A DNA stretch of 64,000 bases, from contig JACOWS010000002.1 of the NCBI GenBank assembly GCA_016176685.1, positions 94,608 to 158,607 on the forward strand, in the 5' to 3' direction. The notes under the pieces are model-generated. The model made no database searches. It was not told where the DNA came from and saw only the letters and a program-made list of their open reading frames with translations. Shown in pieces: positions 31,825 through 38,703 of this stretch (the first letter of the stretch is position 1; each line of letters starts with the position of its first letter). The position numbers and the translations under genes were made by a program. Origin of the DNA: Patescibacteria group bacterium (lineage in GTDB: Bacteria; Patescibacteriota; Minisyncoccia; Phycocordibacterales; SBAW01).

Positions 31825-34800
31825 TTACGCTGCTTGTTTTTCTTTTTCTGCCAGTGCCGGCGCGTGAGACTGCTCCTCTTGCTCGGTGATCATTTTTTGT
31901 TTGGGCGAGCCCATGAAGCCGGTGCCCGCTGGGATAAGCCGACCGATGATTACATTCTCTTTGAGCCCCTGTAGAGTATCCACCGCGCCATAGATAGACG
32001 CCTTGATGAGCATGCGGGTCGTGTTTTGGAAGGATGCCGCAGAAAGGAACGATACGCGCGAGAGCGACACGTCGAGAATACCCATGACAAGCCCTTCGCC
32101 CGACGCTTTTTCTCCCCCTTCGCCCGCCACCTTGTCGTTGGTGATTTCAAGTTCCGAACTAGGTAGTACCTCGCCCACCGATAGCTCGGTCGTACCTTCA
32201 TTTTTTATCTTCACTCGGCTAAACATCTGTCGGATTATTACCTCGAGGTGTTTAACAGAAATGTTGGCGCCCTGGAGTTCATAGATTTTGACGATCTCCG
32301 AAATGATATACGCCTGCGTTTTTTCCTTTCCGGCATATTTGAAGAGCTCTTGAAGGTCTGCCGAGCCGTCGGTCAAGAGCTGCCCCTTTTCAACCCGGCC
32401 ACCGACTTTAACCAGCGGCACGCGTCGGAAGTGCACCGTGTATTCCACCGTGTCTTTTTTACCCTTGCCCGCCTTGTCGCGAGACAAGTGCTCGATGTCT
32501 GGTGCGACAACTATGATTTTTTCTTTCCCGTCATTTTTGATTTCAACCACCTCCCCGCCAACCGTGGCGACAATGGCCGGATTGCGCGGCGCGCGGCGTT
32601 CAAATATCTCTTCAACGCGCGGGAGCCCCTGGGTGATATCGCCGCCGACAGAGGCCGCACCGCCCGCGTGGAAGGTACGCATGGTAAGCTGGGTCCCCGG
32701 CTCGCCTATAGCCTGCGCGGCCACCGTGCCGACCGCCTCGCCAAGGTCAACCGGCCGCATGGTGCCGAGGTCCGCACCGTAGCAGCGGATGCACAGTCCG
32801 TGACGCGTTTTGCAGGAAATCGGACTCCTTACATACACCGACTCAAGGCCCGCCTCTTCTATATGTTTAGCATCGACGCTCGTGATAAAGTGCCCCTTTT
32901 TGTATAGCGTCTTGCCACCGTCAGCCGACGAACCTTCAACATCTGCAGCCAAAAATCGGCCTTCGATGTTTTGTGCAAGAAAAGTGCCTATACCGGAAGC
33001 CGACTCGCGGCTGATAGAAAGCCCGTCCTTGGTGCCGCAGTCCTCTTCGCTCACGACAATGTCTTGGGCGACGTCAAAGAGCCGGCGCGTGAGGTAGCCG
33101 GCCTTGGCGGTGTTGAGCGCGGTGTCGGAAAGGCCCTTGCGGGAGCCGTGGGTGGTGATGAAGTACTCTATGGGGGTGAGACCCTCCTTCATCGACTTGG
33201 TAATAGGAAATTCGATAGCTTCGCCGGTGGTGCTTGAGATGAGCCCCTTCATACCGGCCATTTGGGTCACCTGCGCAAGCGAGCCGCGAGCGCCGGACTT
33301 AAGCATGTCGGAAACCGGCCCGTCTAGACGCAATGTTGCGGGGATAAGTTTTTCCACCTCGGACTTGGCGGCGTGCCAGACCTCGATGTTCATCCGGTAG
33401 CGCTCCTCTTCAGAGAGCAATCCTTCATGCCAGTTGCGTACCACTTCGTCTGACTTTTTCTGCGCCTCTATCACTATATTGTTTTTTTCGGCGGGGACGC
33501 GTATGTCATCCAAAGACCACGTAATGCCGGACTGCGTCACATAGCGGAAGCCGAACGTTTTGATGCGGTCCAAAATCTCGGGCACCTTCTCTAACCCGTA
33601 GCGGATTATGAGGTCGTCCACAAGCTTCGCCATGCCCTTTTTGTCTATCGCATAGTTAAGGAATGGATGGTTGCTTGGGAAGATAGAGTTAAAGAGGAGC
33701 CGCCCAACCGTGGTTTCAAAAAGAGCACCGCCAAACTGCGCGTATCTTTCTTTTTCCGACGGCAGCACTTTTATTTTCGCCTGGAAGCCGACATGTCCGT
33801 AGTCGTAGGCCAAGATGGCCGCGTTTGGCGAGTGGAAGGCTAACCCCTCCCCGCGCATCCCCGCTACCTCTTTGGTCATCCAGTAGGAGCCGAGCAGAAT
33901 GTCGAGCAACTTGGTTGCCACCACCGGCTCGCCGTTACCCGGTTTAAGTATGTTTTTGTGTGCGGCCATAATCTCGCGCGCCTCGGTCTGTGCTTCGGTG
34001 GAAAGAGGCACGTGCACGGCCATTTGGTCGCCGTCGAAGTCGGCGTTAAACGCCGGGCAGACAAGCGGATGCAGTTGTATAGCGTTGCCCTCAATAAGGA
34101 CCGGTTGGAAAGCCTGTATACCCAGGCGATGAAGCGTCGGTGCGCGGTTTAGCAGCACGTATTTGTTTTTTATAACCTGCTCAAGAATGGCCCACACTTC
34201 GGGGACTCCTTCGTCGATAAGCCGGCCCGCGCCGCGTATGTTGTACGCAAGTTCTTTCTCAAGCAGTTTGCCGATGACAAACGGGCGGAAGAGCTCGAGC
34301 GCCATGTGCTTGGGGAGCCCGCACTGGTTGAGTTTAAGTTCCGGTCCCACCACGATAACCGAGCGGCCAGAGTAGTCCACGCGCTTTCCCAAAAGGTTTT
34401 GGCGGAAGAGTCCGTGCTTGCCTTTAAGGTTGTCGGAGAGCGACTTAAGCGGCCGCGTGCGTGCCTGGGTCGTGGCAGAGTAAGCGGCGCCGCCATGTCG
34501 GATAGAATTGTCTATCAGCGCATCCACCGCCTCTTGCAGAATGCGCTTTTCGTTGCGCAAAATAACATCCGGCGCGTGAATCTCCATCAATTTCTTCAAA
34601 CGGTTGTTGCGGTTGATGACGCGGCGGTAGAGGTCGTTGACGTCGGAGGTGGCGTGGCGGCCGCCGTCGAGCGCAACCATAGGGCGCAGCCCGGGCGGTA
34701 TAACCGGTATGCGAGTCAAGAAGAGCCATTCAGGCCGCACATGTGCGCGCACCATAGCACGCAGTGCAGCAAGGCGCTTGTTAAGTTTTTCGCGCTCGGC

Positions 34801-38703: not shown

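Follow-up and report, generated by a model that had tools for sequence, protein, structure and literature searches.

The textbook examples of fusion between RNA polymerase's beta and beta' subunits come from the Helicobacteraceae and from Wolbachia (Lane and Darst, 2010; Zakharova et al., 1999), and a paper cited in that literature sets, by its title, campylobacters with overlapping rpoB and rpoC genes beside the fused helicobacters. A report in Protein Sci 2024 ('BEAN and HABAS'; PMC11515920) added Candidatus Adlerbacteria, in which beta and beta' are fused as one chain. That is the same fusion as the one described here, which is carried by the rpoBC gene of a 64,000-nt (64 kb) stretch of a Patescibacteria genome (contig JACOWS010000002.1; the whole stretch is hereafter called the window). 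Fusion takes up a single sentence of that report, which treats the two subunits as separate chains when it analyses them and covers neither the linker, nor how far the clade extends, nor its split sister lineages, nor other Patescibacteria fusions. Our literature search found no further paper tying Adlerbacteria, Patescibacteria or the candidate phyla radiation (CPR) to a fusion. The fusion of the Adlerbacteria lineage is already on record, though never analysed. To what is in print we add evidence from across the clade, a linker motif under selection, separately linked fusions elsewhere in Patescibacteria, corrections to the genomic context and a structured leader RNA of rpoB(C).

The rpoBC reading frame

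The gene and its parts, all on the minus strand and given as positions in the window, are:

31825..38703, minus strand: rpoBC, a single open reading frame (ORF) of 2292 codons plus TAA, encoding beta-linker-beta', 253.7 kDa predicted
35563..38703, minus strand: beta module, amino acids (aa) 1-1047, of minimal type, without large lineage-specific insertions
35509..35562, minus strand: linker, aa 1048-1065, 18 aa
31828..35508, minus strand: beta' module, aa 1066-2292, without a start codon of its own

The first-pass annotation of this DNA had placed rpoB and rpoC in one 2292-aa ORF, and the ORF listing, Pfam and NCBIfam all bore this out. The frame begins with ATG, ends with TAA and holds zero internal stops. 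Seven Rpb2 domains (Rpb2_1 to Rpb2_7) cover aa 19-1047, i.e., beta, and five Rpb1 domains (Rpb1_1 to Rpb1_5) cover aa 1066-2170 of beta'. The NCBIfam rpoB equivalog NF001616 aligned to aa 4-1047 through profile positions 3-1095 of 1096 and scored 1406.9 bits (cut-off 896), and TIGR02013 recognized a full-length rpoB with 1382 bits against a cut-off of 801. The rpoC equivalog TIGR02386 aligned to aa 1070-2264 through profile positions 2-1143 of 1147, with a score of 1461.2 bits (cut-off 963.5). Since the rpoB and rpoC profiles are each matched over nearly their whole length, both subunits are complete and are joined end to end. Signature motifs of each module are present: the beta motif GGQRFGEMEVWAL at aa 973, the N-terminal Zn ribbon of beta' (C-x-C...C-x2-C) as CYCGKYRGIRYKGITCEKC at aa 1120, the catalytic NADFDGD at aa 1553 and GSRKGL of the bridge helix at aa 1853. 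In the 60 best PDB matches, the alignment of solved beta chains runs to ORF aa ~1046-1054, which is at or close to where these chains themselves end, and that of beta' chains starts (own residues 3-7) at ORF aa ~1062-1067; no fused chain with a solved structure was found among these 60, and none of them covers the linker, which also lies outside the rpoB and rpoC profiles. One frame crosses the junction with neither stop, frameshift nor start signal, and it is kept in independent genomes. These results confirm rpoBC as a true in-frame rpoB-rpoC fusion.

The peptides that had been quoted for the end of beta, the linker and the start of beta' were all present in the ORF. The linker had been called basic and about 15 aa long; it is indeed short, but measures 18 aa (22 aa if counted between the ends of the rpoB and rpoC profiles) and is only mildly basic, with 4 K/R vs. 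2 D/E. Likewise, the junction had been put at ~34,900-35,000, about 550 nt away from its actual position (35509-35562).

Comparison with the described fusions set the window protein apart. The Helicobacter-type fused model (NF007172 / PRK09603) reached 2062.1 bits, in 6 stretches, against a cut-off of 5372, and the Wolbachia-type model (NF011417 / PRK14844) reached 1949.2 bits against a cut-off of 4632, so that the protein belongs to neither family; with 2292 aa it is about 550-600 aa shorter than these profiles (2890 and 2839 positions, respectively). RpoBC resembles that of Helicobacter and Wolinella in being fused end to end by a short tether and in having relatives with adjacent or overlapping rpoB and rpoC genes (e.g., L076 and L123, below), but its linker is unrelated, it belongs to another phylum, it has no rplJL upstream and its origin is independent. 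With the RpoBC of Wolbachia and other Anaplasmataceae it shares a single-chain beta-beta' in a reduced-genome bacterium; the difference is again an independent origin. The window's RpoBC is an independent fusion of minimal CPR-type subunits. It represents a third and much smaller natural single-chain beta-beta' (254 kDa, no large insertions), which could suit recombinant expression of a CPR polymerase.

Distribution of the fusion and conservation of the linker

To place the fusion among relatives, 5.8 billion proteins were searched, and the cluster counts given here refer to the 120 best clusters. More than 110 clusters of 2,200-2,310 aa held all beta and beta' domains, at identities from 96% (the best database match) down to about 50%. 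They came from NCBI, JGI, ENA and Logan under the labels Candidatus Paceibacterota, Patescibacteria and Ryanbacteria, and the linker motif of the window was present in 83 of the 120. A junction-spanning query against one genome per GTDB species returned 80 loci. In the 25 nearest (L001-L025; 78-88% identity), all GTDB species representatives titled Ca. Adlerbacteria or Paceibacterota, the frame was continuous through the junction in 25/25; five loci (L005, L006, L011, L016, and L017) are cut by contig ends. The nearest records, titled Ca. Adlerbacteria, were 86-88% identical across the junction. A stop codon or frameshift in relatives had been named beforehand as the finding that would overturn the fusion, and the absence of any stop, frameshift or gap at the junction held in all of these nearest loci. 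One of them, L004, carries a frameshift inside its beta' part (~7931-8240), seen as overlapping stop-to-stop ORFs well past the junction, which is probably an assembly error or a pseudogene.

In the remaining loci (L026-L080; 61-75% identity), which are of Nomura-, Kaiser-, Taylor-, and Liptonbacteria types, rpoB ends in an ordinary stop (mostly TAA) and a short spacer separates it from the ATG of rpoC; 47 split junctions were scored in this GTDB-species scan. An unbiased, beta'-only query of metagenome contigs yielded 74 junctions, among which there were no fusions and the spacers varied between short overlaps and about 50 nt. The beta of split relatives extends 5-25 residues past D(I/V)(E/D)L, and their beta' has 8-25 residues ahead of (D/N)F(D/N).(V/I). 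Given these tail lengths, the 18-aa linker corresponds approximately to the sum of the two terminal tails. In L076 and L123, which represent a split lineage near the fused clade, rpoB and rpoC overlap, the ATG of rpoC standing 8 nt ahead of the rpoB end; campylobacters beside the fused helicobacters offer a parallel. We also considered read-through or an ancestral fusion in the split relatives, as ~41 of the 47 split junctions at first had rpoB and rpoC in the same frame. This excess was rejected because the ranking had used a junction-spanning query; in the unbiased sample 20 junctions were in the same frame and 54 in different ones, and the same-frame share of 27% agrees with chance.

Phylogenetic analysis took the form of a distance tree with 100 bootstraps, for which beta and beta', whether fused or concatenated, were aligned over 2,220 columns. 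We defined the Adlerbacteria-type fused RpoBC, or group A, by a 17-22-aa linker with (R/K)KTPGAE before (D/E)FDAV.IRPASPE, together with a place in a monophyletic fused clade. The window protein has both features: group A was monophyletic in 100/100 bootstraps, with the window inside it, and was nested among split lineages. The fusion is a fixed, vertically inherited trait of the Adlerbacteria-type clade of Paceibacteria, whose members are tiny and uncultured.

Other fused proteins of Patescibacteria fell outside this clade. A second clade, group B (Ryanbacteria-type, P0091-P0116, including a Ryanbacteria record), contains proteins of about 2,250-2,310 aa that are about 53% identical to the window's, and it was excluded from group A plus all split lineages in 100/100 bootstraps. 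Its linker is shorter and unrelated (...EP.Y....R(R/K)DDF.ALKI). Two single fused clusters, P0088 and P0089, never fell inside group A and were placed beside split lineages; the linker of P0088 still has the old Met, and that of P0089 is about 40 aa long. Since these differently linked groups separate in the tree, fusion or fission occurred at least two times within Patescibacteria, and up to four if the single clusters are real. Two other observations were made among the clusters. P0108 (2,310 aa) is labelled 'Anaplasmataceae bacterium' but lies firmly within group B, which is probably a taxonomic mis-assignment of a metagenome-assembled genome. P0117-P0120 are fused beta-beta' proteins of 2,530-2,670 aa from other bacteria, with unrelated linkers.

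The first-pass annotation had regarded beta-beta' fusions as rare outside Helicobacter and Wolbachia. Those cases are indeed the known ones, but rarity was overstated: the fusion is fixed in at least 25 GTDB species, besides its motif's presence in the clusters counted above. Public records label the fused proteins of about 2,280 aa only "subunit beta'", for which reason Adlerbacteria genomes may seem to lack rpoB. Pipelines that rely on marker genes and assume rpoB and rpoC to be separate may mis-score these bacteria.

The linker itself consists of two unlike halves, the first 9 residues being variable and the last 9 (RKTPGAEAS) conserved. Of 26 fused genes, 24 have linkers of identical length, and two have a linker that is one codon shorter. 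Across the 24 fused genes synonymous sites are saturated (proportion of synonymous differences, pS, about 0.7), and the linker length is nonetheless constant. The ratio of nonsynonymous to synonymous differences (pN/pS) was 0.72 in the first half of the linker, 0.21 in RKTPGAEAS and 0.05-0.08 in the flanking segments of beta and beta'. Because the linker length is fixed, the RKTPGAE half is under purifying selection and the motif is widespread, the junction is evidently translated and kept by selection.

Probable origin and product of the fusion

Considered together, we judge it very probable that rpoBC is a genuine, vertically inherited gene fusion, in which the ancestral junction was lost, the product is a single chain, and the effect lies in 1:1 synthesis and assembly. 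In the common ancestor of the Adlerbacteria-type clade, the rpoB stop, the short spacer and the rpoC start would have been lost; loss of the stop through a small indel or point change would be the simplest route. What had been the terminal tails of beta and beta' would have become the 18-aa tether. Translation from one start would then yield a single 254-kDa chain, as the ORF and the selection on the linker suggest, and its beta and beta' halves would fold into the normal crab-claw and assemble with alpha2 into an otherwise ordinary RNA polymerase core. The C-terminus of beta and the N-terminus of beta' are near each other in the enzyme. Because of this natural closeness, the tether should be harmless. 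Engineered fusions offer an artificial parallel, in which the enzyme can be active with a short tether between the C-terminus of beta and the N-terminus of beta': an E. coli beta-beta' fusion with tethered subunits is reportedly active, and recombinant M. tuberculosis RNA polymerase constructs with an engineered beta-beta' fusion are a mycobacterial example. It is on the activity of such tethered enzymes that the mechanism assumed here for rpoBC is modelled.

The likely effect of the fusion is that the two large subunits are necessarily made 1:1 and come together more easily. The advantage is probably small or near-neutral. H. pylori with artificially separated subunits is said to be viable, and since tethered E. 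coli polymerase is active and separated H. pylori subunits are tolerated, fusion appears to be easily accommodated and any gain to be modest at most. That beta-beta' fusion is instead a recurrent, selected solution in Patescibacteria rather than a neutral accident, with RKTPGAE having acquired its own function in the Adlerbacteria-type clade (it could bind to the surface of the enzyme or stand in for an assembly helper that these minimal genomes have lost), seems to us doubtful. With the fused clade, its split sisters and the groups that fused separately, nature offers a series in which to ask whether tethering affects fitness.

Several points weigh against a simple tethered chain, the viability of separated H. 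pylori subunits already being one against an adaptive benefit. The conservation of RKTPGAE shows a linker that is more than a passive string, and it hints that this half may make a contact of its own. AlphaFold2 modelling of a 451-aa junction fragment with 52 aligned sequences was too poor for use (mean predicted local distance difference test, pLDDT, 55; predicted template modelling score, pTM, 0.35). In the Adlerbacteria-type lineage, moreover, the single-chain protein is a prediction from sequence. One alternative reading is that rpoBC encodes a precursor cleaved in the conserved linker, or is a dual-output gene from which beta' is also made from an internal start. RKTPGAEAS is conserved more than a passive tether needs, and an in-frame ATG (aa 1047) and GTG (aa 1070) sit either side of the linker. 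However, we found no combination of a Shine-Dalgarno sequence and a start at the junction, i.e., nothing Shine-Dalgarno-like at proper spacing from either codon, though the main rpoBC start lacks one too. The ATG at aa 1047 is also not strictly kept, its Met being replaced by Leu, Thr or Gln in some relatives, and Pfam revealed no protease module in the protein. The Helicobacter fusion protein, for its part, is said to have been found as one chain. We consider a precursor or dual output improbable.

Far less credible still is an artefact of assembly or sequencing, in which a lost stop or an indel falsely joins two genes. The genomes concerned are metagenome-assembled, and L004 does have a frameshift elsewhere, inside beta'; but the same in-frame junction recurs in 25 GTDB species and in 83/120 best clusters from independent projects, and together with codon-level purifying selection on the linker this effectively refutes an artefact. 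Horizontal acquisition from Helicobacter/Wolinella or Wolbachia can equally be dismissed, as the top raw bit scores of the fused-family models arise merely from covering both halves and fall far below their cut-offs on profiles too long for this protein, while the fused clade is nested within its closest kin, Paceibacteria that keep rpoB and rpoC separate, and synteny with split relatives is kept on both flanks.

Gene neighbourhood and leader RNA of rpoB(C)

Features on either side of the fused gene, with a second paralogue elsewhere in the window, are:

31539-31718, plus strand: ORF of 59 aa, hydrophobic, with a strong Shine-Dalgarno sequence (GGGGAGG), convergent, between rpoBC and dnaG
31776..31802, no strand assigned: 11-bp GC-rich hairpin, 22 nt past the rpoBC stop, with a T-run on the plus strand
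39052-39588, plus strand: ORF of 178 aa, no Pfam match, with a 41% tblastn match in L001 only
39593-39622, both strands: bidirectional terminator with a 13-bp stem, common to the PaaX-like gene and the 178-aa ORF
1305-1886 and 39728-40318, minus strand: PaaX-like paralogues of about 195 aa (PaaX central, Cas2-like domain)

Within 6 kb either side of rpoB(C), fused and split loci (L001-L079) have a common gene order: smc, RNase R (opposite strand), trmD, a variable segment, rpoB(C), dnaG, rpoD, a PD-(D/E)XK nuclease and a thioredoxin-like gene. In Paceibacteria, the genes of core RNA polymerase, primase and sigma-70 are neighbours, replacing the usual rplKAJL-rpoBC arrangement. The first-pass annotation was correct that rplJL is not upstream of rpoBC, but it had tied this to the fusion, and relatives with separate rpoB and rpoC lack rplJL in the same way. 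Since split relatives share both the missing rplJL and the dnaG-rpoD neighbours, these are class-wide traits unrelated to the fusion.

Downstream of rpoBC, the hairpin at 31776..31802 also closes the 59-aa ORF, given its T-run on the plus strand, and probably marks the 3' end of the rpoBC transcript. A single rpoBC-dnaG-rpoD operon is doubtful, given this hairpin and the convergent 59-aa ORF between rpoBC and dnaG; because these separate the two genes, rpoBC is probably a transcription unit of its own. On the upstream side, the 178-aa ORF is divergent from rpoBC and convergent with the PaaX-like gene, and forms a variable insertion between trmD and rpoBC. PaaX-like copies occur at varying sites round rpoB/C, as if mobile, in L011, L016, L020, L021, L033, L050, L052, and L060.

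Between this insertion and the rpoBC start lie three further elements:

38943..38970, minus strand: promoter-like site TTGACA-16-TATACT (11/12 matches), about 240 nt 5' of the rpoBC ATG
38790..38938, minus strand: leader RNA of about 149 nt, predicted as GAAAC, P1, GATTGAGT, P2-P4 and a GC-rich P5 with U-run
38776..38784, plus strand: DnaA-box sequence TTATCCACA, with no other perfect copy in the window, situated in the leader of rpoBC immediately past the terminator-like hairpin

Of 23 fused relatives, 22 have the pattern TTGAC.-N17-TATACT, as do 20 of 30 split ones, where it lies 135-340 nt upstream of rpoB. A long leader had been proposed for the fused gene. The gap of ~1 kb is not a leader, but from the promoter-like site to rpoBC there is a 5' untranslated region of about 230 nt, and it does contain a structured RNA, the core of which also precedes unfused rpoB. 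Across loci this RNA is 135-170 nt long, its P1 is optional and its GC-rich hairpin is followed by UUUUCGUGUUU; it ends about 90 nt before the ATG in the window and 50-160 nt before it across loci. An nhmmer profile and a covariance model each found one copy per fused locus with an upstream region, i.e., 23 copies (the window, L001-L004, L006-L015, L017-L023, and L025), all directly 5' of rpoBC, and no second copy within the window.

Support for the structure came from covariation. In an alignment fitted to the model, and hence leaning towards it, 91.7% of paired cells could pair vs. 79.4 +/- 0.9% in shuffles, compensatory double changes occurred in 19 of 28 pairs vs. 8.7 +/- 1.6, and the covariation score was 0.312 vs. 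0.140 in shuffles and 0.03-0.06 with the partners slid; 0/500 shuffles reached the observed values. A-U/U-A and C-G/U-A exchanges in P2 were already visible in a sequence-only alignment, and P1 folds with unrelated stem sequences in different loci. Rfam gave no match for the leader RNA, even at E <= 10. A two-sequence covariance model run with filters off on split sister loci returned noise only, while a motif search found the GATTGAGT core in 14 of 30 split loci. Because the promoter and this core also precede unfused rpoB, the leader element predates the fusion.

A conserved structure between promoter and start, ending in a hairpin and U-run and always before the same gene, has the features of a generic attenuator or cis-regulatory leader, as judged from the sequences. 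Judged by where it lies and by its terminator-like end, the element is most likely a transcription attenuator acting on RNA polymerase synthesis; the alternative is a separate small RNA gene. In E. coli, an attenuator lies between rplL and rpoB. The two are alike in placing a terminator-like hairpin between promoter and rpoB, so that expression would need read-through. In contrast to the E. coli attenuator, the window's leader has its own promoter, five covarying hairpins and no upstream ribosomal protein genes, and it shows no kinship in sequence or Rfam. The leader RNA is described in no source that we searched and, having no Rfam entry, is a candidate regulator of RNA polymerase synthesis in Paceibacteria.

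With regard to the DnaA box, a DnaA-box-like motif, TGTGGATAA (<=1 mismatch), abuts the rpoB -35 box in 9 of 53 loci, vs. about 0.2 expected, standing just 5' of it (e.g., L008, L019, L025, L029, L049, and L060). A replication origin at the leader was considered and rejected, as there is neither a cluster of boxes (11 matches with <=1 mismatch vs. 8.8 expected) nor a turn in GC skew.

Farther along the window, the NusB domain (aa 7-136) of a 306-aa ORF (46892-47812, minus strand) is followed by a NUDIX hydrolase domain (aa 175-278), another unusual fusion with a transcription factor as one partner; the gene of RNase III (46194-46895) comes directly downstream. ORF calls overlap at 48557-49741 (minus strand), 49151-52333 (plus strand) and 51973-53574 (plus strand). 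Of the ORF with the RNase HII domain, only aa 209-393 belong to that domain, and the ORF extends into dnaE; the end of dnaE contains the start of a class II aminoacyl-tRNA synthetase ORF. In these RNase HII, dnaE and aminoacyl-tRNA synthetase overlaps, the true starts probably lie further downstream.

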